NCBI RefSeq assembly: GCF_003018255.1
Contig: NZ_CP027440.1
Length of the DNA stretch: 64,000 nt
DNA from: Escherichia coli
GTDB lineage: Bacteria > Pseudomonadota > Gammaproteobacteria > Enterobacterales > Enterobacteriaceae
Reading direction: 5' to 3' (one strand)
Part shown: positions 3,771 through 59,644 of the stretch, piece after piece
Position numbering within the stretch: the stretch's first letter is position 1
How the letters are laid out: each line of letters opens with the position of its first letter
Made by a program: the position numbers and the translations under genes
The notes under the pieces: generated by a model
Seen by the model: only the letters and a program-made list of their open reading frames with translations
Database searches by the model: none
What the model was told of the DNA's origin: nothing

Positions 3771-4533
3771 AACGTTACTGAGTCAGATCAACCGTATTTG
3801 CACCGCTCAGGGGATCCCGTTTTTTATTGCAGGTGCAACGGCTCGTGAAATTCTGCTCCATCATATACACAGCAGAAGTATTGGTCGCCGAACCCGTGAT
3901 ATTGATATTGCCGTCTTTGTGGATAGCTGGCCGAGATTTGATGCGCTTAAAAATGCTTTCCTTGCTGAAGGGGCAGAAGTTGTCCAAGGTAATGCCCATC
4001 GTATGATTGTCAAAGGGATCGAGCTAGATATTATTCCTTTTGGTGGTGTTGCTGAAGGAAATCAAATTGCCTGGCCACCAGAACGTGAGATCATAATGGC
4101 TGTGGATGGATTTGCCGAAGTCTTTTCTCATACCGTAGTTGTGCGGCTGGATAACAGCGAAAATATTCCGTTCTGCTCCTTGCCAGGACTGGCTCTGTTA
4201 AAACTTTTTGCATGGCGTGATCGTGGGCATGGGAGTACTAAAGACGCGACCGATCTCTTTAAGATTATCTGTGAATATGGTGTTATCGAGAATGAACGCA
4301 TCTATGAATCGCCCGTCGAAGGGGAACGCCTGAACTGGGATCCCATACGTATGGGCGCTTTTCTGTTGGGAAGCGATATAGCGACAATTAGTGAACACTC
4401 ATCCTTGCAGGATTTACTCCATCTTGATAAAGAACGCCTGATCGATGTGATAGTACGACAACATGACGTGGGTGATGCTGGGATTGAGCAGATCATCAAT
4501 GATTTCTGGGATGGTATGGCAAGTGATGGTTGA
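3724..4533 (+). CDS. Pol-beta-superfamily nucleotidyltransferase, AbiEii-like
   Basis: 269 aa. AGATAREILLHHIHSRSIGRRTRDIDIAVFV fits the G-x-A..R-x-T-x-DID NTase motif, with a second acidic stretch IELDIIPFG. Overlaps the upstream gene. Confidence 0.6.
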   Translation: MTNIFTLMNPISSATETLLSQINRICTAQGIPFFIAGATAREILLHHIHSRSIGRRTRDIDIAVFVDSWPRFDALKNAFLAEGAEVVQGNAHRMIVKGIELDIIPFGGVAEGNQIAWPPEREIIMAVDGFAEVFSHTVVVRLDNSENIPFCSLPGLALLKLFAWRDRGHGSTKDATDLFKIICEYGVIENERIYESPVEGERLNWDPIRMGAFLLGSDIATISEHSSLQDLLHLDKERLIDVIVRQHDVGDAGIEQIINDFWDGMASDG

Positions 4534-4543
4534 GGATGTAGTT

Positions 4544-5739: not shown

Positions 5740-6081
5740 ATGAACGTAACCTCACCCAAAATGTTGTCTCAGGCAATCAGGGATGCACGCAAGCAACGTA
5801 ACCTGACCCAGCGTGAAACTGCAGCAAGTATGGGCATGAAACAGTCAACGGTTTCAGAGTTTGAGAACCATCCTGAGGGGACCAGCCTGGATACGCTCTT
5901 TAAGCTGCTTGCCGCTCTGGACCTTAAGCTTCAGGTCGTAAGCTGGAGGGGTAAAAAAACTCTTCTGATGGCTGGGAGCAGGAGTGGTGATCTGTGGAAA
6001 TATGAACAAAAAGGCCATGGCGCTATCCGGACGGAACCACCATTTTCACTAGCGTACCATCTGGATTTCCAGAGCACATAA
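5740..6081 (+). CDS. HipB-like XRE antitoxin/regulator, probably frameshifted at its 3' end
   Basis: MNVTSPKMLSQAIRDARKQRNLTQRETAASMGMKQSTVSEFENHP..LDTLFKLLAALDLKLQV. After the A7 tract (5953-5959), the alternative frame ends ..DGWEQEW* at 5990, resembling the HipB C-terminal ..EW. Confidence 0.65.
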   Translation: MNVTSPKMLSQAIRDARKQRNLTQRETAASMGMKQSTVSEFENHPEGTSLDTLFKLLAALDLKLQVVSWRGKKTLLMAGSRSGDLWKYEQKGHGAIRTEPPFSLAYHLDFQST

Positions 6082-6207
6082 GAGAAGCTATTTTTGCATC
6101 AGTCAGCGCGTATTCCGTAGCCATCTCGGCAGTAGTTGAAACAGTAAAAAATGCCCCTATTTCATGGCTAATTAACCGCTAAATTCCAGCCATGGAGGAA
6201 ACCACCG

Positions 6208-6474
6208 ATGTCACCTCGGACACACCGCCAGCTCGTAAGTGTTGAAGTGATGTGGCCTGCTCAGACGCTACCGCTTCCCCTACAACAGGTAGTCGAAGCA
6301 TTGAATCAGGGCGAAACGCCCGATCAGATTATTATCCGCATGAACCAACGGGGTCTGCTGGCGTGGCGTGAGGATGCATCCGCGCAGGATACACACGATA
6401 TCTTTCAGGTACGTCTGGACAACCAGAATGAGGCGCGATTTCTCTGCCGCTACGTTACGTTGCCGCTGCACTGA
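6208..6474 (+). CDS. Hypothetical protein (88 aa)
   Basis: ORF with a GGAGGA SD 8 nt upstream of the ATG. No recognised motif. Confidence 0.4.
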   Translation: MSPRTHRQLVSVEVMWPAQTLPLPLQQVVEALNQGETPDQIIIRMNQRGLLAWREDASAQDTHDIFQVRLDNQNEARFLCRYVTLPLH

Positions 6475-6585
6475 TGCCCCTATCCCGGTAACGCGAAATT
6501 GAAGAGTGCTGTTTATCACCGGATAAATTAATATGCTATAAAATAAAGAGTTAGCAAATGTCGTTTCAGGGATGATGAGTTGTAA

Positions 6586-7239
6586 ATGAAGAAGAAACTG
6601 CCAGACCAGCTTTCCAGGGAATGCATTATTGCGGCTATGCGTGCCTATGATGAAGGTGTACGCCACCAGTTCAGCGAGTCCCGGCTGTATGATGTGGTCT
6701 TTGAAGGGCGCAGTTATCCACCGAAAGCTATAGTCGGTATTGCTGCTTCAAATATGACTGGCGTTGAGTTTTCCCCTGAAGATTTTAGTGGTGGTATCAA
6801 GTCGAAATGCGTCAAGTTGCTTACCGATCAAGGGTTCCAGATCGTTGAGAAACATTTGGGTAACGAGCAGCCCGCCATCAGTATTTTTCCTGATGAACTG
6901 CCACCGCAGAGCGTATTTACTGAAGGTGCAGCTACGCAGGTAACGGTTAATCGCTATGAACGCGACCGTAAGGCCCGACAGGCCGCATTAGCCTGGCATG
7001 GTTGTCTGTGCAAAGTATGTGGTATTGATATGATGAAGGTGTATGGCGAGATAGCGAAAGGTTTTATCCATATACACCACCTGATTCCGCTATCAGACAT
7101 CAAAGAGAATTACTCTCTGGATCCCAAAAAAGATTTTATTCCCGTCTGCCCAAATTGCCACGCCATGTTGCATCGGCGTAATCCGCCTTTTTCGCCTGAA
7201 GAATTGAAATCAATTATTGAATATCATGCGGCTCTTTAG
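6586..7239 (+). CDS. HNH endonuclease (McrA-like putative restriction enzyme)
   Basis: 217 aa. C-terminal HGCLCKVCG..FIHIHHLIPLS..PVCPNCHAMLHRR (HNH with CxxC pairs). Paralogue of 61354-62004. Confidence 0.8.
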   Translation: MKKKLPDQLSRECIIAAMRAYDEGVRHQFSESRLYDVVFEGRSYPPKAIVGIAASNMTGVEFSPEDFSGGIKSKCVKLLTDQGFQIVEKHLGNEQPAISIFPDELPPQSVFTEGAATQVTVNRYERDRKARQAALAWHGCLCKVCGIDMMKVYGEIAKGFIHIHHLIPLSDIKENYSLDPKKDFIPVCPNCHAMLHRRNPPFSPEELKSIIEYHAAL

Positions 7240-27093: not shown

Positions 27094-28429
27094 CGGACAG
27101 CCTCCTGTTTTTTCGGACGACAAAGATGTAGTACGCGCTGGCGAGGGCCAGCCAGATCAGGACGGTAACCAGGGTAATGCCGCCGCCGTCGGTGAAAAAT
27201 TGCCCGGCCATGATCAGCGCAATCAGCCCCACGGTGAGTGGCTGGATGTAGCGGGCGGCCGGAGCCTTGTATTTCAGCGTTCCGTCGTGCAGGGCTATTC
27301 GGTGCAGGGTGGGCTGGCTTAAGGCAATCATCAGCCAGGTGAACAGAAAGCCGAATCCGGAAATCCCGGCGAGGATGACATACGCATCTGGCGAGAGAAT
27401 GGCGATGATGACGCCGGTAAACAGCACCAGGCTGCTGGCAAGAATGGCGTTATCCGGTGTTTTATGTGCCGGGTGCAGGCGGGCAAACCAGGCCGGGAAA
27501 TAGCCGTCAGACGCCATGGCGTGCAGCATCCGCGAGGTGGCGTAAACCCCGGTATCGATGCAGGAGAGCGCGGCGGTCAGCACCACAAAGTTCATGATAT
27601 GCCGCGCCATATGGCCACCGAGAATGCCGGAAGCTTCGACATACGGGCTGCTGCTGACACCTGCCTGCTGCCAGGGGAGAACGAGCAGCAGAACGGTCAA
27701 TGAGCCGACATACAGCAACAGGATCCGCACCACGGTGCCACGCAGCGTACGAGGAATATCACGCTGTGGGTTCTCGCTTTCACCCGCGGCGGTGCCGATG
27801 GCCTCTGTCCCGCCGAAAGAGAAAATCACCATTAACATCGCGCCGAGAAATCCGGGCAGCCCGCCAGCAAAAAAGCTGCCGCTGTCGGTCGGATGACTGA
27901 TGCTGGCGGGTGAGGCGTTATCCAGTCCCAGGCTGTAGCAGCCCGCGACGATAAAGGCCAGCAGCGCCACGACTTTCACCAGGCTCAGCCAGAACTCCAC
28001 TTCACCGAAAAAATGAACGCCGACCATGTTGATGGCAGTCAGCGACGAAGCGATCACCAGGCAAAACAGCCAGACGGGGACTCCGGGAAACCACAGGTTC
28101 AGGAAGGTGCCTGCAGCGATGGCCTCCGACGCCGGGCCAATCAGGAAGGCCAGCCAGTAGGTCCACCCGGTGATAAAGCCACACCATGGGCCAAAGGCGG
28201 TGCGGGCATAGGATTCAAAGGAACCGGAGACGGGCCTGGCGACCGCCATTTCGGCAAGCAACAGCATAATGAACAGGGTGATGACACCGCCGATAAGGTA
28301 GGCCAGCACCACCGACGGCCCGGTACGGGCAATGGCCGCGCCTGCGCCGAGGAAAAATCCGGCACCAATCACGCCTCCCACGGAAATCATCGTCAGGTGA
28401 CGGGCTTTCAGACTTCTGTTGAGTTCCAT
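27071..28429 (-). CDS. APC-family amino-acid permease
   Basis: MELNRSLKARHLTMISVGGVIGAGFFLG signature and about 12 hydrophobic spans. Confidence 0.85.
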   Translation of the reverse strand: MELNRSLKARHLTMISVGGVIGAGFFLGAGAAIARTGPSVVLAYLIGGVITLFIMLLLAEMAVARPVSGSFESYARTAFGPWCGFITGWTYWLAFLIGPASEAIAAGTFLNLWFPGVPVWLFCLVIASSLTAINMVGVHFFGEVEFWLSLVKVVALLAFIVAGCYSLGLDNASPASISHPTDSGSFFAGGLPGFLGAMLMVIFSFGGTEAIGTAAGESENPQRDIPRTLRGTVVRILLLYVGSLTVLLLVLPWQQAGVSSSPYVEASGILGGHMARHIMNFVVLTAALSCIDTGVYATSRMLHAMASDGYFPAWFARLHPAHKTPDNAILASSLVLFTGVIIAILSPDAYVILAGISGFGFLFTWLMIALSQPTLHRIALHDGTLKYKAPAARYIQPLTVGLIALIMAGQFFTDGGGITLVTVLIWLALASAYYIFVVRKNRRLSDEKSHAQ

Positions 28430-28472
28430 AATGTCTTCTCTTTTGTTGTTGTGGATGGATTCAAGGCAGCGC

Positions 28473-28847
28473 TTATGGCCGTCCCTCCTCAATCAGCAGT
28501 TCACCGTACAGGTCGTGAAGTTTAGGGATTGGGCCGGAGAGATGAACGGCTCCCGAATGGCAGGCATTCAGGCTGCCGTTAAACACCATGGTCAGGTGGC
28601 CAAGTTCAAACAAAGACTGCTGTGCCTCTTTACCCACGGCGGTCACCAGGTAGTCATGGCTCGCCAGCAGCAGCCGATCGCCGGGCAGGATCAGCAGGTC
28701 GTCTTCGCGGAATGAGGGTTCCAGCGACAGGGAATAGTCCAGGCAGTCTTTCGGTCCGTTGCTGTCAAAGGTGATAAGCGTCCTGTCTGCCAGTCCGTCG
28801 GCGACAAACAGCCCGATAGCAACGATGCGTGCGCAGTAGGTCATCAT
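28473..28847 (-). CDS. PTS glucitol/sorbitol IIA (SrlB)-like domain protein
   Basis: 124 aa. LITF..G....L......YLVTAVGKEAQQSLFELGHLTMVFNG....H.GAVHLSGPIP parallels E. coli SrlB (..YPVTAVGSVAEDNLRELGHVTLRFDG..GTVHVAGPVP). Confidence 0.6.
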   Translation of the reverse strand: MMTYCARIVAIGLFVADGLADRTLITFDSNGPKDCLDYSLSLEPSFREDDLLILPGDRLLLASHDYLVTAVGKEAQQSLFELGHLTMVFNGSLNACHSGAVHLSGPIPKLHDLYGELLIEEGRP

Positions 28848-29065
28848 GGCTCGTTCTCCCGTTTGTCGGGCATGAGAGTACGGCCTGGTGTAGGTGAGCA
28901 GGCATGTAGCCTGAATAGGTGAATAAAGCCTTCAGTCCGGGAGGCCGGGTGAAGGTGGCCTCCGGTTGTAAGAGCGATGGAGCAAGGGTGTGGTTCGGTG
29001 TGCATAAACAACTCTCCTGTCAGGTGTCGTTGATTAATGCGTCCTGCCACTCACAGCGCGGGTCG

Positions 29066-29341
29066 TTATGTCCCGGAGTTTTCTGTTGTTGTCATGAGGT
29101 GAAGCGGTTTACGGGGTTCACGTTTATTTCCCGTATTGAGGTAACGTTCCGGCCAGATTTCTGACGGATGCTTTCCCAGCGCAATGGCAATCAGCCACTC
29201 ACCTTTCGGCCACGGTCGGTTCAGGGCATTCGCCAGCGTTGACGAGGCCAGTCCCGCTTCCCGCGAGAGTTTCGCCAGACTGGTGCCGCGCTTGTGTAAG
29301 GCGGCAATGATATCGGCGGGGTGCCAGTCTTTTTTAGTCAT
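29066..29341 (-). CDS. Ner/SfsB (Nlp)-like DNA-binding protein
   Basis: DWHPADIIAALHKRGTSLAKLSREAGLASSTLANALNRPWPKGEWLIAIALG closely matches the SfsB/Ner pattern. Confidence 0.8.
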   Translation of the reverse strand: MTKKDWHPADIIAALHKRGTSLAKLSREAGLASSTLANALNRPWPKGEWLIAIALGKHPSEIWPERYLNTGNKREPRKPLHLMTTTENSGT

Positions 29342-29359
29342 TCCGTTTACCTCTATTGT

Positions 29360-29422
29360 TGACTATGAGTCACGAATGTATGCTAGCACGCTTTTTATGT
29401 GACTCATAGTCCGTGGACTGAT
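29360..29422. promoter_or_regulatory. Divergent-promoter operator: 13-bp perfect inverted repeat plus a 25-nt box
   Basis: GACTATGAGTCAC (29360-29372) and GTGACTCATAGTC (29398-29410). The box GTGACTCATAGTCCGTGGACTGATA runs 29398-29422. Confidence 0.6.
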
Positions 29423-29448
29423 AATCAACGAAGATTGATGCTGGCTAG

Positions 29449-29712
29449 ATGGAAAAGACGGGATCAATCAAAAAGGTACTGGGTAAAAGAATCAGGGCTC
29501 TACGCCGTGAGATGGACCTATCCCAGGAAGCTTTAGCCGACAAATGCGGTATCGATCGCACCTATATGAGTGGAATTGAGCGAGGAGTAAGGAACCCCAC
29601 GCTTGTTGTCATTTGTGCAATCTCGGACGGTCTGGGGATGGATCTTAGCCATTTATTTATGTTTGACGATGGCGCAGAAAAGGACGCCGAATCAACGAAG
29701 TGTGACTCATAG
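29449..29712 (+). CDS. XRE-family HTH regulator, tandem paralogue 1
   Basis: 87 aa. LSQEALADKCGIDRTYMSGIERGVRNPTL. Confidence 0.8.
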   Translation: MEKTGSIKKVLGKRIRALRREMDLSQEALADKCGIDRTYMSGIERGVRNPTLVVICAISDGLGMDLSHLFMFDDGAEKDAESTKCDS

Positions 29713-29725
29713 TCCGTGGTCTGAT
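29701..29725 (+). promoter_or_regulatory. Second copy of the 25-nt box
   Basis: GTGACTCATAGTCCGTGGTCTGATA, 24/25 identical to 29398-29422. Overlaps the end of paralogue 1 and lies upstream of paralogue 2. Confidence 0.6.
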
Positions 29726-29751
29726 AGACAACGTAAGTTCATTTTATCTGG

Positions 29752-29976
29752 ATGAAAAATACATCCAGTATTCAGGCGCAGTTTGGCGCACATCTCAAAA
29801 AACTCAGACTCCAGTCGGGCCTGTCTCAGGAAGCATTCGCGGATAAGTGTGGTCTCGATCGTACTTATGTGAGCGGTATTGAGCGGGGAGTAAGGAATCC
29901 AACCCTTGAGGTGATAAGTGTTTTAGGAAAAGGGTTGGACATGGACATCAAAGAATTATTCAACTTTGAAAGATAG
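29752..29976 (+). CDS. XRE-family HTH regulator, tandem paralogue 2
   Basis: 74 aa. LSQEAFADKCGLDRTYVSGIERGVRNPTL. Confidence 0.8.
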   Translation: MKNTSSIQAQFGAHLKKLRLQSGLSQEAFADKCGLDRTYVSGIERGVRNPTLEVISVLGKGLDMDIKELFNFER

Positions 29977-29978
29977 GT

Positions 29979-30923
29979 TTATCTATTAGTAGCAACTCTA
30001 TCCGCAGCAGTACGGGTAACTTGATTTCCAACATCCCAGCCGTTTTCATCTGGGAGTGACATCCCATCCATTGGCATTAGGATAAAACCACCAATAGTTG
30101 GTCCAAATGACTCAGTAGTGTTAATTCCTGCATAGCTTGTTCTGATAATATTTTCATTCAAATTGGTCAAAAATGATATTCGAGTACCAAGTGGGTGCGC
30201 GGTTACCATTTGGATGTATCCACCAATAGTATTGACTGTTTCTTGGTTAATCCAATTATTCAAAGCAATAAACGGGGTACGCCACCAATTTATTGTGTTA
30301 GGAGTAAATTGTTGCCTGGTATTCTCTATAAACTCATTAAGTTCATGCAAGTTATCACCTAATAAAACAGGTCTGCCTGTTGATAAATTTTGAATATCTT
30401 CAATCTGGAGGTTGGCTGGGTGCTCAATAGAGTTATTGAGTTTTATAATTTTGTAGGTTTGTGTTCTCCAGCAAAAACCAAAAATTATCATCTGTATTCT
30501 TACTGCTTGGGGAAAGGATTGGCCGATATCAGACATATATTGCTCGGCAATATTTTTTGCTAATGAAGCTATTTCATTAAGACTTGGGAATGCTTCGGTC
30601 GATATTTGTTGTTCTGGATTATTGTTCGCAATCTCATGAAGTCTTGCTAATGATACTGCAAGCATTTCTTTGACATTAATTCCAATCATTGTACTTCCTG
30701 CAAATCCGAAGCCAAATTCGAATATTTTTTGCGGGTGAATTCGATAAACGTCCGAAGAGCGAATAACTGATACGGGGATTGAGAATAATTTCGGACAATG
30801 GTCAGTTAGTCTGCTATTTTGCTGAGTGATTCTTGAGTCGCTGACTGCCCAAATACTATCGCTTTCCTCTCTATTAAACCAACATGCAATTGCGGTCATA
30901 AGGTTTTTCCAGTTATTTAACAT
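29979..30923 (-). CDS. Hypothetical 314-aa protein (possible Ntn-hydrolase/proteasome-like N-domain; start may be 30899)
   Basis: AT-rich ORF immediately downstream of the TraC-like gene. MTAIACW..WAVSDSRIT..PKLFSIP..FGFAGSTMIG loosely follows the proteasome-beta/HslV pattern. No firm family. Confidence 0.5.
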   Translation of the reverse strand: MLNNWKNLMTAIACWFNREESDSIWAVSDSRITQQNSRLTDHCPKLFSIPVSVIRSSDVYRIHPQKIFEFGFGFAGSTMIGINVKEMLAVSLARLHEIANNNPEQQISTEAFPSLNEIASLAKNIAEQYMSDIGQSFPQAVRIQMIIFGFCWRTQTYKIIKLNNSIEHPANLQIEDIQNLSTGRPVLLGDNLHELNEFIENTRQQFTPNTINWWRTPFIALNNWINQETVNTIGGYIQMVTAHPLGTRISFLTNLNENIIRTSYAGINTTESFGPTIGGFILMPMDGMSLPDENGWDVGNQVTRTAADRVATNR

Positions 30924-30947
30924 TAATGCGAATAGCTTAGCATATTT

Positions 30948-33590
30948 TTATTGCGAGATTACCGAGCTTAGGGTTATCGCCGCCTCCACTTCACTACACC
31001 CTGTCTCCTTCATAATCCGCATCCTATCGGCCTTTTCATGTTTCTCTGTCATCGCCAGCGCCAGATAGAGCGCTGGCGGCACCACCCGAAACAGTGCCTC
31101 TATACGCGGTGAAAGCACCACGCCCTCGGTATACTGCCCCGGTGATTTTACCGCTGAGCGCAGCAGTTGGCTCTGTTCTTCCGTAAGCGCTTTAAACCGG
31201 CAGACCTGCTCGATCTCTTCCGGCGGCATCACCAGTAGTTCCCACCATTCGATCATATTGAGCAGCTTCTTCGCCTCATCAGGAAAATCCGCCAGGTTCT
31301 GGGTGGCGAGCCACAGCCAGATACCGAGCTTGCGCCACATCTTCGAGCCTTTGGTGAGAAAGCGCGCCAATAAGGGATTAACAGTGATGATATGCGCCTC
31401 ATCGGTGATATTGACGATAGGCCTCGCCAGATGCTGGGCGCGCTCGCCGAGGTTATTGATATGGTTAATCAGCGAGATATAGCTGATGGCAAGCTGCGCT
31501 TCATAGCCTTCGCGGGCAAAGGTGGCGAGATCCACTAGGGTGATATCCGCCTCCGGCCACATCTGGCCTTCACGGTTAAACAGTTCGCCTTCAAACCCGG
31601 CGCAGAACAGGTTGATGGATTCCGCCATTTCATACGCCCTCTGGCGGCGGGCTTCCGGCAGACTGTTGTCGCGGGAAAGGGCGAACAGTGCGTCACGGAT
31701 ATCCTGGGTCAGCGTCTGTCGTTTTTCCTCGTAGCAGGTGTGCGCGGCAGCGATAATCGCCTGGCGGATCATCGCCCGATCCGGCCGGGTGAGGCGCGCA
31801 TCCTCTTTCGCTTCACCACCGGTAATCATCAACCGGGCGGTGATCTCCATTTCACCCAGCACGTCGCGCTGGTCATCGCCGTCGCTCTCTTCGTCCTCTG
31901 GCGGTTCGGCGTCGGTAACTGCCTGTTCCACCAGTCGCCACGCATCGGCGAACAGGGGCAGGGTGACGCCAGAACCGGGGCGCAGGCTGATTTTATTCAC
32001 CGTCAGGCCGTGGGCGGCGGCGTAGTCGGCCATCAGGCCAAATGAGTTTCCGGCCTCGATGATAAACAGGCGCGGACGATGTAGCGCCATCAGTTGCGCG
32101 ATTTTCGCGTTGAGGGTGGCGGATTTGCCCGCTCCGGTTGGCCCAAGAAGTAAAAGGTGTCCGTTCTGGGCACGATCCAGCTTGTTCAGCGGATCGAAGC
32201 ACAGCGGCGTGCCGCCCCGGTTGAAGTAGCTGATCCCCGGATGCCCGGTGCCGGTTTCCCGTCCGTACAGCGGCAGCAGCCCGGCGATATGCTGCACAAA
32301 GTTGAGCCGGGTATACAGCCCGCGCGGGTCGCGCAGGGGATCGAAGCACATCGGCAGCCAGCGCAGCCAGTGGCTTAAGGGGGCGACTTCGTGCTGCTCC
32401 TGCACCGGAACCAGCCCGGCGTTGAGCAGCAGGCTCTGTAGCTGACGCTGCTGGCGGAACAGGATATCGGTGTCCGGCGCGCTGAGATAAAACGCCAGCG
32501 TGCTGCGGTAGAGTTTATGGCCGTCCTTCAGGAAGCTTCGCACCTCGCTGCAGTCGCGGCGGGTGTATTCCGAATCGGTATTGTCGCCAATCGCCCGGTC
32601 GGCCAGGCGGCTGATGTGTTGCTCCAGCTTGTCCTGCGGATACACCACCACGGTCAGGTTCATGATGGTTCCGCCAGGCAGCAGGTCGACCAGGGCGTTA
32701 ATGCCGTCTCCGCGCGCGGTTTCCCCGGTCAGCAGGCCGGGCGGCGGCGCTTTGCGCAGGCGGTCAACCACCACCACTTTATGCGGGCGGTTATCCAGCC
32801 ACCAGACGCCGTTTGCCGCATCCGAACGGGGTTCACTCGCCAGCAGGCGTTCGGCGAAATCGGCCAGGACCGGCAGCGGTTCAGTTTCCGGCAGGTCAAG
32901 CTGCTGCCAGAAGGCTTTTTTGTCCTCAGCAGGCGGCGCGGGATTAAACCAGCGCACCAGCCAGCGGTGAATGTCCTGCTCATTCTGGCGGATAGCGCTG
33001 ATACCCGCCGCTTTTAGCCCGGCGGTAAGGCGTTCGCAGATATTATTCAGCGTCTCTTCCGGCGACGGTTCATCCGGTGAAAGTCCAGGAAGCCATCGGT
33101 ACACCACCATCCGCGTGCGCCGCCACGTCGCCCGCCAGCGGGTACGGGTGACGGTGTTATCGAGAAACAGTCCCTCGTCGCGGGTGAGATTCACCATATG
33201 GTTTGCCATCTGTGTGAGCCACTCGCGGGTAAAGGCGGAGTCGCGGATTTCCGGTGCGGCGTAAGAGGCAAGTGATGCCAGCCACGCCTCGCTGTCGTCC
33301 TCATCCTGACAGAAAAACTGTACCACCCACGGTGCGCGCTCATGCTCATCAAACGCATCCTGTAAGGCATCGGTGACGGTATCGCGGACCTGTTCCAGAA
33401 ACGCCGTTGAGCGGCCTTCGGTGCCAACGGGATATAGCTCAAATACGGCACCTACCGAGCGGCCATCTTCCAGCAGCAGCGTCTGCGACTCCGGCAAAAA
33501 CTCCACCCACGGCAGCCAGTCGACAAATGACGGGCCCTTGCGGTAGCTGGTATTCAGCGCCTGTTCAGTCAGGCCGCGCCGTTCATTCAT
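30948..33590 (-). CDS. Conjugative transfer ATPase (TraC/VirB4-like, PFL_4706/TIGR03744 type)
   Basis: 880 aa. Walker A LLLGPTGAGKSA and Walker B-like RLFIIEAGN / ITDEAH. ATGA overlap with the upstream lipoprotein gene. Confidence 0.85.
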   Translation of the reverse strand: MNERRGLTEQALNTSYRKGPSFVDWLPWVEFLPESQTLLLEDGRSVGAVFELYPVGTEGRSTAFLEQVRDTVTDALQDAFDEHERAPWVVQFFCQDEDDSEAWLASLASYAAPEIRDSAFTREWLTQMANHMVNLTRDEGLFLDNTVTRTRWRATWRRTRMVVYRWLPGLSPDEPSPEETLNNICERLTAGLKAAGISAIRQNEQDIHRWLVRWFNPAPPAEDKKAFWQQLDLPETEPLPVLADFAERLLASEPRSDAANGVWWLDNRPHKVVVVDRLRKAPPPGLLTGETARGDGINALVDLLPGGTIMNLTVVVYPQDKLEQHISRLADRAIGDNTDSEYTRRDCSEVRSFLKDGHKLYRSTLAFYLSAPDTDILFRQQRQLQSLLLNAGLVPVQEQHEVAPLSHWLRWLPMCFDPLRDPRGLYTRLNFVQHIAGLLPLYGRETGTGHPGISYFNRGGTPLCFDPLNKLDRAQNGHLLLLGPTGAGKSATLNAKIAQLMALHRPRLFIIEAGNSFGLMADYAAAHGLTVNKISLRPGSGVTLPLFADAWRLVEQAVTDAEPPEDEESDGDDQRDVLGEMEITARLMITGGEAKEDARLTRPDRAMIRQAIIAAAHTCYEEKRQTLTQDIRDALFALSRDNSLPEARRQRAYEMAESINLFCAGFEGELFNREGQMWPEADITLVDLATFAREGYEAQLAISYISLINHINNLGERAQHLARPIVNITDEAHIITVNPLLARFLTKGSKMWRKLGIWLWLATQNLADFPDEAKKLLNMIEWWELLVMPPEEIEQVCRFKALTEEQSQLLRSAVKSPGQYTEGVVLSPRIEALFRVVPPALYLALAMTEKHEKADRMRIMKETGCSEVEAAITLSSVISQ

Positions 33591-39225: not shown

Positions 39226-39510
39226 TCACCAATTTACAGGTAAGCGCCGATGGGTATGAAACACGCGTAAAACCTGAATTATATTATTTCGTACTCGATA
39301 GGGAATGATATAAGGGTAATTATGAAGAATGAGCTCACGTGTTTCAGGTACCCTTCCTTCCCGGCCCATAGCGGGTTGCTCTTTGAGCAGTTGCGTAAGT
39401 CGCCAGACTTCGTTCACAAACCGTTCCGCAGCCTGCGGATCGTCTTCAGCAATATACCGGAACTCAGCTTCGAGATTGGCAATGGCTTTACGTAGCCACT
39501 TAATTTCCAT
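39226..39510 (-). CDS. RelE/ParE-family type II toxin
   Basis: 94 aa. Ends ..YIIPYRVRNNIIQVLRVFHTHR, typical of ParE/RelE. Overlaps the antitoxin stop. Confidence 0.8.
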   Translation of the reverse strand: MEIKWLRKAIANLEAEFRYIAEDDPQAAERFVNEVWRLTQLLKEQPAMGREGRVPETRELILHNYPYIIPYRVRNNIIQVLRVFHTHRRLPVNW

Positions 39511-39745
39511 CTGGCTTTACTCCCAGACGTTGAAACAGCTTATCCACCTCATCTGAAGTGGCAAAATCACCGGCATCAGCTTCCTGAATGGCCTGCTCAA
39601 TCTCTGCAACTTGCCAGGCCTCCCGGGCAACATAATCTTCAATTGCCTGATTTGCCAGCCAGGACTTTGAGCGTCCGGTCGCTTTTGATAATGCTTCCAG
39701 TTGCGTGGAAAGATTGTTGTTTAAACGGACTGACATTACGCCCAT
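39500..39745 (-). CDS. RHH (CopG/ParD-like) antitoxin
   Basis: MGVMSVRLNNNLSTQLEALSKATGRSKSWLANQAIEDYV is a ribbon-helix-helix motif. GAGG SD before the ATG at 39745. Confidence 0.75.
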   Translation of the reverse strand: MGVMSVRLNNNLSTQLEALSKATGRSKSWLANQAIEDYVAREAWQVAEIEQAIQEADAGDFATSDEVDKLFQRLGVKPDGN

Positions 39746-45553: not shown

Positions 45554-45577
45554 AAAAAGGCCTTAATAACTAAGGCC
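45554..45577 (-). terminator. Rho-independent terminator (minus strand)
   Basis: GGCCTTA/TAAGGCC stem with a 5-nt loop, followed on the minus strand by TTTTT. Confidence 0.6.
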
Positions 45578-45595
45578 CTGAAAGTTAGCTAAATA

Positions 45596-45778
45596 TTATT
45601 TCCGGCGGTCATCGACTTCTTTGGCGACACCTTTAAAGGGAGTGCCGTCCTGCTTCTGGTCGATAAAGCGACCTGTCGTTGTATCGCGTTTGGTGTAGTT
45701 GCCATTCTGCGGATTCTGAACCTGTGTGCGGTCTGTAACAGAGCCCTTGCGATAACCGTCTCCGGTATTCTTGGCCAT
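45596..45778 (-). CDS. Small hydrophilic protein (60 aa)
   Basis: ORF followed by the terminator. Gly/Lys/Asp/Thr-rich. No firm family. Confidence 0.4.
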   Translation of the reverse strand: MAKNTGDGYRKGSVTDRTQVQNPQNGNYTKRDTTTGRFIDQKQDGTPFKGVAKEVDDRRK

Positions 45779-45885
45779 CTTAACACTCCGAAAAATGAGG
45801 AATATTCCTCAGAGAGGATCATCAGACTGCCAATTTGAACGAGCAATCAGGGAAAAGTAAAAGTGTGATGCAGGAAACAGGTTAT

Positions 45886-47691
45886 TTACTCATTCCGTAA
45901 CGACTTAATCAGCTCTGTCACGTTCTGCTGTTGCTGCACCAGGAACGCCTCCAGTCCCATTTTCCCCGTCGCGATGTCATCCAGCATTTGCTCCCACAGT
46001 GCAGTGGTGCCTGGATCTTTCAGCGTTTCCGGCAGGGCGTCAATCAGCGTGCTGGCGGTATCCGTTGCCAGCAGGAAACGACGCTGCTTAATCAGATAGC
46101 CGCGCTTAAGGAGCGTCTGGATAATCCCGGCGCGGGTGGCTTCGGTGCCGATGCCCGCGTTTTCTTTCAGCCGCTGTTTCAGGCGTTCATCGCTGACAAA
46201 ACGGGCGGCATTTTTCATCGCGGCAATCAGCGTCCCTTCGGTGTAGTGCTCCGGTGGCTGGGTCTGGCGGGCGCGAACGTCCACCTGTTCCACCTAGCAG
46301 GTTTGTCCCTGTTGCAGGGCGGGAAGTGCCTGCGTTTCTTCCGGTGAGTGCGTTGCCATTTCGCGCAAAAACAGTTGTCGCCAGCCGCTGACAATCACCA
46401 CTGAGCCACGGGCAGTCAGCGTTTCCCCGGCGCAGTTCAGGCGCAGGTCCGTTTTATCCACTTCGTGGTCTGGCAGAAACTGCGCCAGAAAATGGCTGCG
46501 TACCAGGCCGTAGACCTTGCGCTCGCTGTCGTTCATCTGCGTCAGATCTACCGTTTTACGGGTCGGGATGATGCCATGGTGGGCGGTGATTTTGCTGTCG
46601 TCCCACAACCGGGAGCGTTGCTGCAGATTAAGCTGCGTGGCGAGGGGCTGGAGTGAAGCGTCGCTGGCGACCAGCGCCGCCAGAACTTGTGGTGCTTCAT
46701 CGTGCATGGAGAGCGGCAGATAGCCGCAGTCGGTGCGCGGGTAGGTGGTGGCTTTATGGGTTTCATACAGGAGCTGGGCGATATCCAGAACCTCCTGTGC
46801 GCCCATGCCCCACTGTTTTGAGCAGGCCTGCTGCAGGGCGCTGAGAGTGAAGGCCTGCGGTGGCGGCGTTTTCTCCCGCCGGGTTGTCACGTCCATTACC
46901 AGCGCGGTTCCGGCTTGTTGCAGGCGTGCTGTGGCCTCACGGGCGGCGGATTCGCGGATGCAGCGGCTTTCGTCGTCACAGTACGCACTATCCGGCTGCC
47001 ACTGCGCCAGAAAGGAACAACCCTCCGCATGCAAACGGGCATCCACCCGCCACCAGGGGCGGGGCGTGAAGCGGGCGATCTCCCGGTCGCGCTCCACCAC
47101 CAGACGCAGGGTCGGCGTCTGCACCCGGCCCACGGAGAGCACGCCCTTGTGCCGCCGGTTCATTAGCGTGCAGGCGCGGGTCATGTTGATGCCGACCAGC
47201 CAGTCGGTGCGGGCGCGCGCCAGTCCGGCCTGATACAGCGGAAAGGTGCTGTCGCCGGGACGCAGAGTGGCGAGCGCCTTGTGGATACTGGCCTCATCCA
47301 GCGCCGACAGCCACAGCCGCTGGACCGGACCGCGCCAGCGGCATTGTTCCAGAATTTCGCGGGCGATGGTTTCGCCTTCGCGATCGGCGTCGGTGGCAAT
47401 CACCACTGCATCCGCCTGTTTCAGCAGCTTTTCGATGATACGGAACTGCTTATGCACCTCCGGGCGGATCACCAACCGCCATGCCGGGGGAATAAACGGC
47501 AGCTGTTCCGTCCGCCAGTGTTTCAGCGCCGGATCGTAATCCTCCGGCGCGGCCATGCTCAGCAGATGGCCGAAACACCAGGTGATGGTTACGGTGGCGT
47601 TATGCAGGTAGCCGTCGCTGCGGTTATGGGCGTCAAGAATTCGGGCGATGTCGCGTGCCTGAGAGGGTTTTTCGCACAGGTAAAGTTGCAT
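45886..47691 (-). pseudogene. DNA topoisomerase III interrupted by a single in-frame TAG
   Basis: MQLYLCEKPSQARDIA, DADREGE (Toprim), SVGRVQTPTL and TTYPRTDCGYL (catalytic Tyr). The TAG at 46294-46296 separates ..QQGQTC from VEQVDVRARQTQPPEHYTEGTLI.. in the same frame. Confidence 0.85.
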
Positions 47692-53210: not shown

Positions 53211-55157
53211 ATGAATTTTGAAGAGCTTATAAATGATATTGAAAGACTCTTAATTGGTAAAGAGTTGCAGTCTATAAATCCTAACACCCCCCCATTATTC
53301 CTTTTAAAAATAGACAGGGATATTGGTAAATATTACGTGTCTGTTTCTTTAAATGCTAAGCCTACGGCAAGGTCAATTTCTGAATTTGAATATATATTTA
53401 ATGACTTACTGCGTAAAGGGTTTTGTAATGTAGATCAGTCATTATATGGTAGCTCTTCAAGCCGTAATCACCCGGAAACAATATTTGCAAACTTGCCTTA
53501 TATTCAATTCTTTAAGTTCAAGAAAAAGAAACATATATTATTACGTAATAAAAATGTACACGAAGCAGGTCAACTTTCTGAATTACAAGGGGCTGAGTCT
53601 CGTGCTATAAGGAAGCAAATAGAAAATTATTTATCTCTAAATTTAAGTGAAATTGCAGAGCAGCAGTTAAAATCGTTGGAAAAAATGTTCGATGCGTATG
53701 ATGCTATTTTAAAAAAATACCCAGGGGATATCCCTGTTATAATGGCTGAGCAAGGCTTGTTGGGATTAAAAAACATTAGCGAAGTACTGATTAATTCTTA
53801 TGTTTCCTTGGATTTTGACAGTAGTGGCGATAAAATAAATAAATTAAGTAAATTTAAACAGGTGGAGTTATTTAAAGAAGATTTATCTTTAGAGGATTTA
53901 ATTGAGTCCCCTGAGATAAGTGGAGTTGATTCAGGTGATAAGAATATTGAGGAACAATCGGAATCAGAATTAGCACCTGAGCAAAAACGTACGGGCATTG
54001 CAAAAATGCTTATGACTACACCAGTTTTAACACTAATTTTTGATCGTGTAAGATATGATGAAATTGAGTTACAACCTGACTTTCAGAGAAAAGACCGAAT
54101 TTGGCCTGACGACAAAAAGTCAAAACTTATTGAATCAATATTAATGAAGCTTCCATTACCGGGGTTTTACTTTGGTGAAAAGCCAAACGGTAACTGGGTA
54201 GTTATTGATGGCCTTCAAAGAACGACTACAATTTGTGATTATATGAGTGGTCATTTCTCATTGAAAGGGCTCTCTATTTTAGAGCACTTAAATGGAAAGA
54301 GTTTTAAAGATCTTACTCGAACCGAGCAACGAGACATTAGAGAGTATCAAATTACGGCTTACCAAATAGAACTAAATGATGATAGTTCTGAATTGGTTGT
54401 AGAACTATTCCATAGAATAAACACTTATGGTGTAAAGTTAAGTAGTCAAGAAATAAGATCTGCACTTAATAAAGGCAATAGCGTAACCTTTTTACGTTAT
54501 TTAGCTTCATTAGAAACGTTCAAAAAAGCGACGCAATTTAAAGTAAAGCCGGACAGGCAAAAAGATATGGAGCTCTGTTTGTCCGCTCTTGCTTTTATGG
54601 TACTTGGTTATAATAACTATGGCCAACATTCGTATGATCATTTTTTATGTAGTGCAATGCAGAAGCTAAATAATTATCCATTAAGCATCATTAATAAAGA
54701 AGAGATTGATGCTGGAACAGCTCTTATTTCTCCTTCAAGTGAAGTCTTTTTAACTTTATATTCAAAATATAATCAGGCTTTAATCTTAGCAAATGAAGTT
54801 TTTGGTGAAATAGCTTTTTCAAAAGATCCGGAAAATAAAAAATCACCTATTAATAAACAACTCTTTGAGTTAATTGTTACTGTTTTCTCTGTATTTGACT
54901 CACATCAAAAGGAGATGATGTTAGCTAATGGTGATAAATTTATTGATAGCTTATACTTGGCTATTGAGGAGAATAGTAGTCGATATGCTAAGTGGGAGTC
55001 TGATACATATGAAAAGGACGATAGAGGATTTAGAGACTCAATATCTACTTCGACAGGTAAAAGAATATCTGTTGTATATCGATTTGATGCTTTTTTAAAT
55101 ATCCTTGGAAAAAGCACAGGAATAACTATTGATAGTAAATTATTACAGGGGGAGTGA
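53211..55157 (+). CDS. DUF262 (ParB-like NTPase/nuclease superfamily) protein with an unknown ~285-aa N-terminal region
   Basis: 648 aa. LQPDFQRKDRIWPDDKKSKLIESILMKLPLPGFYFGEKPNGNWVVIDGLQRTTTI matches the DUF262 FQR...W / DGQQR core. Confidence 0.8.
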   Translation: MNFEELINDIERLLIGKELQSINPNTPPLFLLKIDRDIGKYYVSVSLNAKPTARSISEFEYIFNDLLRKGFCNVDQSLYGSSSSRNHPETIFANLPYIQFFKFKKKKHILLRNKNVHEAGQLSELQGAESRAIRKQIENYLSLNLSEIAEQQLKSLEKMFDAYDAILKKYPGDIPVIMAEQGLLGLKNISEVLINSYVSLDFDSSGDKINKLSKFKQVELFKEDLSLEDLIESPEISGVDSGDKNIEEQSESELAPEQKRTGIAKMLMTTPVLTLIFDRVRYDEIELQPDFQRKDRIWPDDKKSKLIESILMKLPLPGFYFGEKPNGNWVVIDGLQRTTTICDYMSGHFSLKGLSILEHLNGKSFKDLTRTEQRDIREYQITAYQIELNDDSSELVVELFHRINTYGVKLSSQEIRSALNKGNSVTFLRYLASLETFKKATQFKVKPDRQKDMELCLSALAFMVLGYNNYGQHSYDHFLCSAMQKLNNYPLSIINKEEIDAGTALISPSSEVFLTLYSKYNQALILANEVFGEIAFSKDPENKKSPINKQLFELIVTVFSVFDSHQKEMMLANGDKFIDSLYLAIEENSSRYAKWESDTYEKDDRGFRDSISTSTGKRISVVYRFDAFLNILGKSTGITIDSKLLQGE

Positions 55158-56305
55158 TGAAAAAAATTACGTCTTTAACATTAAAAAATTTCAAAGCTTA
55201 TAAAGAACAGAGTTTTGATTTTAGTAATTTAACTGTATTTTGCGGTAATAATTCTGTTGGTAAAAGTACGGCTATTCAAGCTATCGGTATGTTTCTCCAA
55301 TCAGATATGAATGGTAACAGTAATCTAAAAATAAATGGCGATTTAGTTCATGTCGGAGACTTCGACGATATTCATAATTTCAGTATGCGTGAGGATGATG
55401 TTTTATATTTAAAATATACATTTGAAGACGATACGGCTTGCTGGGGATATGGTATAGAAGAAGGGGATGCTAGAGAAGAACTTTCTAGGAAAAATGAATT
55501 ACCTTTTATTGGGTGTGATAAACAATTAAGAACTATAACAAACTCACTTAAAGATAACTTTTCATTCCAATATTTGGAAGCGGAGAGATTTGGTCCAAGA
55601 GATAATATTCCATTATCACAGCACAATTATCATGAAGGTTGGCTTGGGAAAAATGGGGAACATACAATTGAAGTTCTTGAGAGTTTGGTCACAAGGAGGC
55701 GTTTAAATTTTTCTGCTCAAGAGGATCCTAGGAAACATGAAGGAATTATTAATAATAATGTTTTCAATCATATTGAAGCATGGATGTCTGAGATTTCACC
55801 AGGGCATCGTATCTCACCTAGAATTGAGGCTAGGGCGAATGTTGCATTTAATGTCATAATCCCTTCACCTGGACAATTAACGAAACCTATTAACATAGGA
55901 TTTGGATTTAGTTATGCTCTTAGTATTGTCACTGCTTTAATGCTGGCATCAAAAAATGAACTCGTTATTATTGAAAATCCTGAGGCTCATCTACATCCAA
56001 GAGGTCAAAGCTATTTAGGACGACTTATTGCTTTATCAGCAAAAGCAGGGATCCAGGTTATTATTGAGACTCATAGTGATCATCTTCTTAATGGCATAAG
56101 AGTAATTGCACGCACAGATCCAACTTTTGATGCTTCTCTTTTTACTCTTTACTATATTTCACGAGAAAATGATGAAACATCTGTCGCCAAAATAAAAATA
56201 AATAATGAAGGGAAACTTTCCGAATGGCCTAGAGGGTTCTTTGATCAACAATCACAGGATATGTATACGATAATGACAGGCTCTTTTGATCATCCCAATA
56301 TTTAA
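55157..56305 (+). CDS. AAA/ABC-type ATPase with a DUF3696-like C-terminus
   Basis: Walker A FCGNNSVGKST, Walker B-region LVIIENPEAHLHP, H-loop IIETHSDHLL and C-terminal LSEWPRGFFDQ. Its ATG overlaps the upstream TGA (TGATG). Confidence 0.85.
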   Translation: MKKITSLTLKNFKAYKEQSFDFSNLTVFCGNNSVGKSTAIQAIGMFLQSDMNGNSNLKINGDLVHVGDFDDIHNFSMREDDVLYLKYTFEDDTACWGYGIEEGDAREELSRKNELPFIGCDKQLRTITNSLKDNFSFQYLEAERFGPRDNIPLSQHNYHEGWLGKNGEHTIEVLESLVTRRRLNFSAQEDPRKHEGIINNNVFNHIEAWMSEISPGHRISPRIEARANVAFNVIIPSPGQLTKPINIGFGFSYALSIVTALMLASKNELVIIENPEAHLHPRGQSYLGRLIALSAKAGIQVIIETHSDHLLNGIRVIARTDPTFDASLFTLYYISRENDETSVAKIKINNEGKLSEWPRGFFDQQSQDMYTIMTGSFDHPNI

Positions 56306-56324
56306 TATTGTAGGGACATATAAA

Positions 56325-57209
56325 ATGAAAGCTGGCGTGTTTCTTATTCCTGAATGTTTTGATTTCAATACGGATATTTTATCTTTAAGTTCGGACCTTG
56401 ATCTGGCTTCGAAACTCGTAGTAAATACCCGTTCAGAATTTATTCACTTTATGAAATCTAGGGAGTTTGACTCGAAGATTGCGGAGTTATTGTTTTCCAC
56501 ATCACCTGATTATGCTGGAATGATGTCAAGATTTTACGATCAGCATCTATCAAAAGTTATAAAAATGGATATTAATGACGATGATATTATTGATATTATA
56601 AATAGCGAAGAACCTAAGTATTCTAACCGTTTGTTATCAATTTTTAATACGGGAAAAAAAGATTTAAATATTAAATATGTTAATAGATTAATTGACTCAG
56701 AAATTAAGATGAATGATTATTGTACTGATATCTTATTGAATTACCCAAGAAATGACGAGCAATACTGTGAGGATATACAGCAGGTTTATAAAAATTTAAT
56801 TTTCCTAGATTATCCAGAGGCAAAAGAATTTAAGACATTTAATAGTCTCAAGAGAATGACCGGTGGTTATGATAATTTCTTGAAGGCTATAACCAATTTT
56901 TTAAGTTATATGAATAAATTCGAATTCAAAACGAAAGATATGATGGATACATTGAAAATGATGGAGAGTGATTTAGGATCTCCAGTAACTCCGGAAGGAG
57001 GGGGGAAGAAAAGCCGATCTTTGAAAAGAGATTTTTTAATTAATGGAAAGCTATATACAAATGTAAACTGCGAATTCCATTTGAAATTAGAAAATGTTGA
57101 TGATACTAAGGGAAACAGAAAACACCATAAGAATAGAATTTATTTTGGATTTATTATGATAAGTGATAAAAACAGAGTGGCAATAGCTCATATTGGGGAA
57201 CACATTTGA
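56325..57209 (+). CDS. Unknown 294-aa protein, third gene of the operon
   Basis: ATG 19 nt after the ATPase stop. No recognised domain. The C-terminus CEFHLKL...NRIYFGF...VAIAHIGEHI is faintly RelE/YafQ-like. Confidence 0.6.
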   Translation: MKAGVFLIPECFDFNTDILSLSSDLDLASKLVVNTRSEFIHFMKSREFDSKIAELLFSTSPDYAGMMSRFYDQHLSKVIKMDINDDDIIDIINSEEPKYSNRLLSIFNTGKKDLNIKYVNRLIDSEIKMNDYCTDILLNYPRNDEQYCEDIQQVYKNLIFLDYPEAKEFKTFNSLKRMTGGYDNFLKAITNFLSYMNKFEFKTKDMMDTLKMMESDLGSPVTPEGGGKKSRSLKRDFLINGKLYTNVNCEFHLKLENVDDTKGNRKHHKNRIYFGFIMISDKNRVAIAHIGEHI

Positions 57210-57219
57210 AATCATTTTA

Positions 57220-59419: not shown

Positions 59420-59644
59420 TTTATACCTATCAAGTTAGCTTAAATTTTTACTAAATATCTCGCTGTACGATCCTACTATTTTACATGATAACTTGTTAAT
59501 TATCAATTTACTTTTTAATATATTAGCAAATAAGACCTGGCACTACTTCAGATTAGATAGTATTCATTGCTATAAAGTTAGGTGTTAATATATTGATTAA
59601 TAGTATAAGCTGCTATTATAGATTTAGAAACCGAAGGAACTTAT

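Follow-up and report, generated by a model that had tools for sequence, protein, structure and literature searches.

Two small tandem genes for XRE-type helix-turn-helix (HTH) proteins, duplicated together with their operator, converge on a low-GC gene at the end of a conjugative transfer block in Escherichia coli, which raises the question whether these regulators serve the gene that they face. The locus lies in a ~60-kb integrative conjugative element (ICE) of the PFGI-1/SPI-7 class, and the window, i.e. the whole stretch of DNA that we analysed, comprises 64,000 nt of contig NZ_CP027440.1 (assembly GCF_003018255.1). A first-pass annotation of this DNA had taken the two HTH proteins for a private repressor pair of the convergent open reading frame (ORF) and had tied the role of that ORF to the transfer operon. 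Our analysis indicates that the locus is probably the junction of two independent mobile modules, a regulatory cassette of controller (C) and Ner-like genes and a lone gene for a proteasome-like hydrolase, in the cargo slot behind traC, and not a dedicated regulator-target pair. The two modules would meet tail to tail, 2 bp apart, without a dedicated regulatory relation.

Distribution of the Ner/C cassette

The cassette of the window comprises the paralogs C1 (29449-29712, plus strand) and C2 (29752-29976, plus strand) and a Ner-like gene divergent from C1 (29066-29341, minus strand). We surveyed the geometry of 80 loci with relatives of C2, one genome per species; the closest 60 (L014 to L073) are related Enterobacterales loci from many genera, with 60-100% identity to C2. 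A Ner-like gene is the divergent neighbour of the C gene in 51 of these 60 loci, and two tandem C genes are present in 15, as in the window. The gene that converges on C2 in the window, most likely encoding 306 amino acids (aa), occurs in a single cassette locus (L014), a contig of a metagenome-assembled genome that matches the window's own ICE. With 60 cassette loci and the ORF in only one of them, the idea of a private repressor pair is not borne out.

The genes beside the cassette vary from locus to locus. They encode Dsr1 in Serratia inhibens (L027, E = 1.5e-108), Hachiman HamA and HamB in Serratia silvae (L072, E = 4.5e-118 and 9e-279), a PD-T4-6/mad6-like kinase in Brenneria (L043, E = 2e-34), an AAA_16/NACHT-like ATPase in Dickeya (L038), a type I restriction-enzyme fragment in Rahnella (L022 and L023) and, one gene away, a McrBC-like pair in Buttiauxella (L020). 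A second S. inhibens locus (L073) has a type II methylase as neighbour (E = 1.4e-136), and its operator is identical to that of the Hachiman locus. In Superficieibacter electus (L015, 4315-9994), a Ner/C1/C2 cassette whose C1 and C2 are 88 and 99% identical to those of the window converges, tail to tail as in the window, on full-length PD-Lambda-4 A and B (E = 0 and 3e-160, respectively), so that a known defence system stands there in the place taken by the convergent gene of the window. Other loci have housekeeping neighbours only, namely efp/sugE-like and nucleoside hydrolase-like genes in Xenorhabdus and guaA, ferritin, phosphotransferase system (PTS) and major facilitator superfamily genes elsewhere. 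The association of the cassette with defence genes is therefore frequent but not universal. In Enterobacterales, the cassette would act as a portable regulatory head that borders on variable cargo, often a defence system.

The Hachiman locus (L072, 679-4446) and the second S. inhibens locus (L073, 4953-6818) share the same C gene with an identical operator and operator tail, with Hachiman downstream in one and the type II methylase in the other; this pair illustrates clearly how cargo is exchanged behind one regulatory head. In Photorhabdus (L046-L051, L061, L066 and L070), two separate C genes lie 0.7-3 kb apart, each with a complete operator, and only one of them is paired with a Ner-like gene.

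Contexts of the convergent gene

Homologs of the 306-aa protein were found in 14 contexts. The window ICE and its Citrobacter relative share the same arrangement, and in the 12 other contexts examined neither a C-family gene nor traC stands beside the homolog. The supposed tie to the transfer operon could accordingly not be upheld, as traC adjoins the gene only in the lineage of the window ICE. Elsewhere, the gene lies between the recombination genes and cI of a Serratia lambdoid prophage, beside a RelA/SpoT-domain gene; next to DarT-DarG in a Vibrio island; next to the integrase of an E. coli prophage, an element also found on an IncI2 plasmid; between the baseplate and tail-completion genes of a Rahnella P2-like prophage; between ogr copies of a Providencia P2-like prophage; after the primase of a P4-like satellite, beside an HNH/ScoMcrA-type nuclease; in a chromosomal islet with an Imm63 immunity gene; and on a Vibrio conjugative plasmid, with a DEAD-helicase cluster on one side and, on the other, a nucleotidyltransferase gene and a SLATT/reverse-transcriptase pair. 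Two metagenomic or chromosomal sites were less informative. A related ICE carries the gene at a different site next to the relaxase, where it is flanked by the relaxase/AbiH remnant on one side and by a ubiquitin-like (E1-JAB/E2/Ubl) operon on the other. In this ICE (L098, 5001-9934, and L099, 749-5683), the homolog is 69% identical and convergent to the ubiquitin-like operon (Multi_ubiq/Prok-E2, ThiF-JAB, BubE); the juxtaposition of a proteasome-fold gene with a ubiquitin-like system may be a coincidence within a defence island.

Because no conserved partner gene was found in these contexts, the upstream 200-aa and 205-aa genes in two prophages being unrelated, the 306-aa gene stands alone. 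The window allele is carried by 37 of 5,426 complete E. coli genomes. There was no match to the protein in 50,697 sequenced phage records, and IMG/VR contained only three loci with a homolog.

We compared the locus with the Citrobacter ICE, in which 29979-30899 aligns colinearly with positions 6001-6921 of locus L009 and the 2-bp junction to C2 is kept. The products of the 306-aa gene are 78% identical, with a synonymous divergence (dS) of 1.6 and a ratio of nonsynonymous to synonymous divergence (dN/dS) of 0.083. The flanks have dS values of 0.19-0.45; TraC is 93.6% identical (dS 0.45), C1 97.7% and C2 98.6%, and dN/dS of the C genes is 0.03-0.04. Because dS is 1.6 in the gene and 0.19-0.45 in its flanks, yet dN/dS is as low as 0.083, these alignments mark the 306-aa gene as a functional gene under purifying selection whose allele was exchanged independently of its flanks. 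The pattern resembles one in which the allele was replaced while its slot stayed fixed.

The same numbers bear on a role in conjugation, i.e. that the protein is an accessory for entry exclusion or for pilus or substrate processing and hence co-transcribed with traC. The gene starts 48 nt after traC on the same strand, with no predicted terminator between them, and the Citrobacter ICE has the same arrangement; the 306-aa gene is probably transcribed through traC read-through or from a weak promoter of its own. We nevertheless consider a conjugation accessory highly improbable, as the GC content of the gene (35-40%) differs from that of the transfer genes (55-66%), its homologs are spread over prophages, a satellite and chromosomal islets and occupy another site in a related ICE, and its allele was swapped independently of traC (dS 1.6 compared to 0.45). 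The product is a candidate new defence effector and would most likely act in phage or mobile-element conflict. 'Defence or anti-defence', as the first-pass annotation put it, is the best functional lead, and it derives from the position of the gene and not from the regulators.

A dedicated unit would require that C1 and C2 exist to control the proteasome-like gene through a convergent collision switch that sets the amount of enzyme. C-activated transcription would then run antisense into the 3′ end of the enzyme gene, and traC read-through would run antisense into C2. The two stop codons are indeed 2 bp apart with no convincing terminator found between them by our scan, the Citrobacter ICE has the same spacing although its enzyme differs by 22% at the protein level, and the nearly identical Superficieibacter cassette converges on a defence operon. 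Such a unit is nonetheless unlikely given that the enzyme gene accompanies one of 60 cassettes, in the same ICE, and that the 12 contexts outside the ICE lineage contain no adjacent C-family gene. In addition, in several Xenorhabdus species the gene that converges on C is a core nucleoside hydrolase-like gene. The P4-like satellite was considered as a further instance of the Ner-C block and rejected: its Ner protein is 64% identical, but its XRE protein is only 28% identical to C2 and there is no C-box.

Controller proteins C1 and C2

C proteins postpone production of the toxic restriction enzyme in a new host to a time when the methylase has already given protection. C1 (87 aa) and C2 (74 aa), which are 58% identical over 73 residues, both match generic XRE models and Pfam HTH_3 (1.8e-13 for C1), and the best PADLOC match of both is Control_protein (6.2e-20 and 3.8e-20, respectively). 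The best solved relatives of the two proteins in the Protein Data Bank (PDB) are C.AhdI (1.7e-12 for C2), C.Esp1396I, C.BclI and C.Csp231I. In the AhdI-like subset of C proteins, a CGTG operator spacer pairs with a DR(T/S)Y recognition helix (PMC2175313). The recognition helices of C1 (DRTYMSG) and C2 (DRTYVSG) both have the DRTY motif, and both operators have the CGTG spacer, matching the published pairing. Because sequence, operator and helix-spacer pairing agree, C1 and C2 are assigned by sequence to the C proteins of restriction-modification systems, AhdI/PvuII group. The first-pass reading as XRE-type repressors thus stood with respect to the fold and is refined to the C family, whose members, by analogy, would activate as well as repress.

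In RefSeq, C1 starts at the internal ATG at 29512 (66 aa), which would cut into the HTH domain and break the conserved spacing between operator and ATG. Because of that conserved 22-nt spacing and the boundaries of the HTH domain, the sequence supports the 87-aa form starting at 29449.

More distant homologs of C2 (51-57% identity, from other phyla) lie in canonical units, in which a type II restriction gene comes after the C gene and the methylase is convergent or divergent, and plasmid pEC22 has the canonical C-restriction-methylase arrangement as well. No restriction or methylase gene was found beside C1 and C2, the next gene being the convergent one with the proteasome-like fold. The nearest methylase, the only one of the ICE, is ~28 kb away and has no C-box. 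Control of this distant 5-methylcytosine (m5C) methylase/Vsr module through a C-box was considered and rejected, as no C-box was found near the module.

The two genes could therefore be a relic, that is, orphans that persisted as selfish autoregulated genes without a target after the restriction and methylase genes were lost. Full C-family sequence and operator features, the canonical type II setting of the more distant homologs and the missing restriction and methylase neighbours here would fit such an origin. The conservation of the cassette over many genera, with intact operators and, in 51 of 60 loci, a Ner-like partner, argues against it, as do the low dN/dS between E. coli and Citrobacter, a conserved extra box on the ner promoter and the different non-restriction cargo downstream in different species, and we regard the relic as decidedly unlikely.

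Operators and predicted promoters

The repeat that drew attention to the locus, the 13-mer GTGACTCATAGTC, occurs in the window in exactly three copies (29361-29373 on the minus strand; 29399-29411 and 29702-29714 on the plus strand). When up to two mismatches were allowed, there were four matches, a number reached in 0 of 100 shuffles. A gap of 25 nt separates the first two copies, which together make a perfect inverted repeat. Copies two and three lie within 25-nt boxes (29398-29422 and 29701-29725, the latter in front of C2) that are identical at 24 of 25 positions, and within a 62-nt direct repeat with a spacing of 303 bp; the coding regions repeat with equal spacing. All of this agrees with the first-pass annotation, including its conclusion that an autoregulatory unit, operator plus gene, was duplicated, here with a 303-bp period.

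The C-box consensus is GACT-N3-AGTC-N4-GACT-N3-AGTC with a conserved central GT (PMC2175313). Both operators of the window fit GACT-N3-AGTC-CGTG-GNCT-N3-ANNC, and the 13-mer covers the left C-box, containing GACTCATAGTC. Operator 1 (29401-29426, plus strand; GACTCATAGTC-CGTG-GACTGATAATC) consists of O_L (29401-29411), the spacer (29412-29415) and O_R (29416-29426) and matches the consensus at 15 of 16 symmetric positions; its left box is identical to the symmetrised PvuII box GACTcatAGTC. Operator 2 (29704-29729, plus strand; GACTCATAGTC-CGTG-GTCTGATAGAC) matches at 14 of 16, and its right box is the symmetric variant GTCT..AGAC, a type that we also found in single-C loci of other genera. No further exact C-box was found in the window. 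The fourth 13-mer match (GAGACTCATAGTG, 56066-56078) has two mismatches and lies inside a DUF3696 gene; with no second box and no adjacent promoter context, it was discarded as a C-box and is probably due to chance.

Each operator ends exactly 22 nt before the ATG of its C gene. In 59 of the 60 closest loci, the identical operator type precedes each C gene, and the tail between operator and ATG is mostly 22 nt long, with 23 nt in a few second copies. Positions 11-16 of the tail form a conserved -10-like hexamer, nAT(G/A)CT (GATGCT, GATACT, AATGCT; also CATTTT), followed by 6 nt and the ATG. The putative C-activated promoter of C1 (29414-29448, plus strand) has the -35-like hexamer TGGACT (29414-29419), a 17-nt spacer and the -10-like hexamer GATGCT (29437-29442), 6 nt from the ATG. 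By analogy, the predicted promoter of C2 (29717-29751, plus strand) consists of TGGTCT (29717-29722), a 17-nt spacer and CATTTT (29740-29745), again 6 nt from the ATG. The -35-like hexamers reach from the spacer into the first half of the right box, and no Shine-Dalgarno sequence precedes either ATG. In PvuII, where the promoter has been mapped experimentally, the transcript activated by C has no leader, and the -35 shares sequence with both the spacer and half-box 2A (PMC2175313). By comparison with that promoter, the C1 and C2 mRNAs are predicted to be leaderless.

As in the C.PvuII and C.AhdI systems, a C dimer bound to the left box would activate this weak promoter, and once C levels rise and the right box is filled as well, the promoter would be repressed. 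The TAG stop codon of C1 falls within O_L of operator 2, and because of this position, read-through from the first C unit would have to cross operator 2.

The Ner-like gene and the lone box

The divergent gene encodes a 91-aa DNA-binding protein of the SfsB/Nlp family. It matches Pfam HTH_35 (PF13693) over residues 5-78 (8.2e-36), i.e. over its full length, as do phage Mu Ner and E. coli SfsB (Nlp). Unlike these, it scores below the cut-off of the NCBIfam SfsB equivalog (101 compared to 150 bits), is paired with a C-type protein and has a C-box on its predicted transcription start.

That box, O_N, is the remaining copy of the 13-mer (29361-29373), a single palindromic C-box GACTATGAGTC plus AC; the 19 nt that separate it from the ner ATG contain a GAGG Shine-Dalgarno sequence. 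The ner promoter, as read from the sequence (29375-29403, minus strand), would consist of the -35 GTCACA (29403-29398), a 17-nt spacer and the -10 TACATT (29380-29375). Its -35 overlaps the left edge of operator 1, and the predicted start lies inside O_N. The inverted pair in the divergent promoter region was correctly noted in the first-pass annotation, but the lone copy sits on the predicted ner start and is not a shared operator. With the start inside the lone box, C should shut off ner: occupation of this box and of the left box of operator 1 by C would block ner transcription. The lone box is kept at the equivalent position in most Ner-linked loci.

The region comprising ner and downstream DNA (28909-29332) is 87% identical to Salmonella plasmid NZ_CP110658.1, where the annotated neighbour of ner is a PTS glucitol/sorbitol IIC gene. 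Because the homology ends just inside the ner start, Ner also travels without C genes.

A candidate proteasome-like hydrolase

The convergent ORF is open to 30923 on the minus strand. The ATG at 30923 lies 24 nt past the traC stop codon, the ATG at 30899 48 nt past it. All homologs begin with M-T-(A/S)-I, and the eight upstream codons are not conserved in the Citrobacter copy, which is why the alignments make the ATG at 30899 the most likely real start, with a product of 306 aa that begins M-T-A-I-A-C-W; RefSeq starts the gene there as well. Placement and low GC of the ORF were described correctly in the first-pass annotation, but its length is likely 306 and not 314 aa.

The N-terminus had been noted to fit the N-terminal nucleophile (Ntn) hydrolase/proteasome-beta pattern, and this assignment was confirmed at the level of the modelled fold and of the catalytic residues. 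An AlphaFold model built with 34 sequences reached a predicted local distance difference test (pLDDT) of 82.8 and a predicted template modelling score (pTM) of 0.84. In a Foldseek search with this model, the top 50 hits were all 20S proteasome chains, the named ones being beta-type subunits, and strands and helices follow one another in the model as they do in the proteasome S1-S10/H1-H4 core. All of 73 family members with 20-50% identity have D21 and K37, and at least 90% of them have M1, T2 and G68. K37 follows D21 by 16 residues, as Lys33 follows Asp17 in the proteasome, and G68 immediately precedes the first helix, as does the oxyanion Gly47. The reference residues and the S1-S10/H1-H4 core are those described for the proteasome family (PMC8665760). 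The protein is thus modelled as a candidate proteasome-like (T1) Ntn hydrolase, encoded by a lone low-GC cargo gene. A threonine directly after the initiator methionine is compatible with the specificity of methionine aminopeptidase, and simple removal of the methionine would expose the nucleophile.

A word-indexed search returned only 33 relatives of the protein. In a profile search of 1.84 billion representatives, 782 clusters were found at E ≤ 1e-3, and most of the listed matches had 260-300 residues and aligned from residue 1. The protein had no match in Pfam, PADLOC or PDB sequences, in NCBIfam it had only a sub-threshold match to a hypothetical protein, and at E ≤ 0.1 it matched none of the defence families of PADLOC-DB v2.0.0. 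A BFVD fold search gave weak matches only, to phage proteasome-like proteins.

Compared to the proteasome beta family (MEROPS T1: 20S beta, HslV, Anbu and BPH), Asp and Lys lie 19 and 35 residues past the Thr here and 16 and 32 in the proteasome. As in the non-20S proteasome homologs, there is no propeptide, and the Gly before H1 is conserved (PMC8665760). Unlike a beta subunit, the 306-aa protein is ~100 residues longer through insertions and a C-terminal tail, and in contrast to the proteasome family, its gene occurs singly on mobile elements and lacks an ATPase partner; the protein has no match to PF00227. Fuchs, Alva and Lupas 2021 described 22 further groups of proteasome homologs, three of which are proteobacterial (GPH, DPH and RPC; PMC8665760). 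The 306-aa family, which we compared with these three by their published description only, may already be one of them; the published representatives (WP_152342571.1, WP_074989469.1 and WP_140207863) do not figure among the accessions of its clusters. Because RPC lacks helix H2 (PMC8665760) and the model of the 306-aa protein has both H1 and H2, membership in RPC is unlikely.

Setting in the ICE

The 2.1 kb spanning the locus is 100% identical to the E. coli JNE23-011 chromosome and 95-100% identical in 42 of 43 matching complete E. coli genomes, and the location was chromosomal every time. According to the annotation of the identical JNE23-011 record, the ICE is inserted next to tRNA-Leu and has genes for a MobH relaxase and a TraD coupling protein, along with a series of TIGR037xx transfer genes. 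The locus marks the junction between a cargo stretch and a transfer block that ends in the gene of a TraC-type conjugative transfer ATPase (30948-33590, minus strand; NCBIfam TIGR03744, 1340 bits, and annotation of the identical record), located 5′ of the 306-aa gene. The cargo stretch consists of the low-GC ORF, the two small HTH genes (GC 44-47%), the Ner-like gene, a group with PTS-IIA-like, permease and creatininase genes, partition genes and a fimbrial operon, after which the remaining transfer genes follow. An Rfam scan of 28000-32000 showed no known RNA.

RefSeq annotation of the identical record places several other defence or addiction modules on the ICE. These are AbiEi/AbiEii (2773-4534), a RelE/ParE-CopG pair within the transfer cluster (39226-39745), a DUF262 and DUF3696 pair plus a third gene (53212-57210), a hypothetical gene with the m5C methylase and Vsr (57272-60101) and a remnant of a phosphorothioate-dependent nuclease. 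The annotation lists the topoisomerase III gene (45568-47373) as a pseudogene interrupted by an internal stop codon, and the integrase adjoining tRNA-Leu (898-2145) is truncated. Given these two defects, this copy of the ICE may no longer be mobile.

Discussion

Several results weigh against the reading of the locus as a junction of two independent modules with a defence-related enzyme. The 2-bp tail-to-tail spacing that is kept in the Citrobacter ICE despite a different enzyme allele may mean selected coupling, and PD-Lambda-4 in Superficieibacter, as a second convergent case, could mean that convergence on the cargo is itself functional. Many cassette loci with housekeeping neighbours only do not fit a universal role as a defence head, and the defence association of the enzyme is a count of ~14 contexts without a statistical test. 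A generic sigma-70 promoter scan missed the C promoters, the ner promoter and any promoter of the 306-aa gene. Likewise, the Pfam proteasome family (PF00227) matched none of the 73 family members, the family profile showed no link to solved proteasomes among the PDB sequences (E above 0.3), and hhalign of that profile against an approximate E. coli HslV query sequence gave no match. Because there is no such sequence-profile link, the relation of the 306-aa protein to the proteasome is structural only. As for the scans, the generic promoter and terminator search returned sites no more numerous than in shuffles.

The regulatory unit resembles C.AhdI/C.PvuII-type systems in size, XRE fold, DRTY helix, two-palindrome operator, overlap with the -35 and predicted leaderless mRNA. 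It differs from them in being tandemly duplicated, in having a Ner-like divergent partner and in lacking a co-transcribed restriction gene and an adjacent methylase, and the cargo of related loci is Dsr1, Hachiman, PD-Lambda-4, a kinase or nothing. In Esp1396I, a single operator lies at the methylase promoter, and the C protein controls both genes (PMC3488213). The lone box on the divergent promoter of the window resembles this single operator of Esp1396I.

BrxR/CapW (WYL regulators), CapH-CapP and RptR are likewise small DNA-binding regulators that, with their own operator, stand beside many unrelated defence systems. Unlike BrxR/CapW, the proteins of the window are of the C-type XRE kind and not WYL proteins, and their predicted logic is activation followed by repression and not that of a repressor released by damage. 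In contrast to all these heads, the cargo of window-type cassettes is sometimes convergent and not downstream. RptR, a published defence-island repressor, was also considered as a relative and rejected, because it binds TAGCTA.

Both components of the locus, the C protein and the proteasome-like enzyme, belong to known kinds. As far as the searched literature shows, what is new is a C-type timer, exapted along with a Ner-like gene, next to defence cargo other than restriction systems, and a protein of proteasome fold as lone cargo in defence hotspots. A bolder proposal joins two claims: that the 306-aa protein founds a new single-gene immunity class against phages or mobile elements, as a proteasome-like threonine protease or transpeptidase in the defence slots of prophages, satellites, plasmids and ICEs, and that in Enterobacterales the C/C-box timer with a Ner-like partner was exapted as a general establishment switch for toxic defence cargo of many kinds, among them Dsr1, Hachiman, PD-Lambda-4 and convergent cargo. 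That both hold is a tentative suggestion, which we think has less than an even chance of being right.

To our knowledge, the C-protein/C-box timer has been thought specific to restriction-modification systems. An intact C unit without restriction-modification genes, beside unrelated defence systems, suggests that this timer is reused more widely than described, and the cassette of the window supplies a concrete operator on which that can be tested. Nothing in these findings overturns a principle. The lone proteasome-fold gene in known defence hotspots, with its conserved catalytic triad, is a cheap and testable candidate for a new immunity mechanism; if true, this would give a biological role to one of the numerous bacterial homologs of the proteasome that are still uncharacterised.

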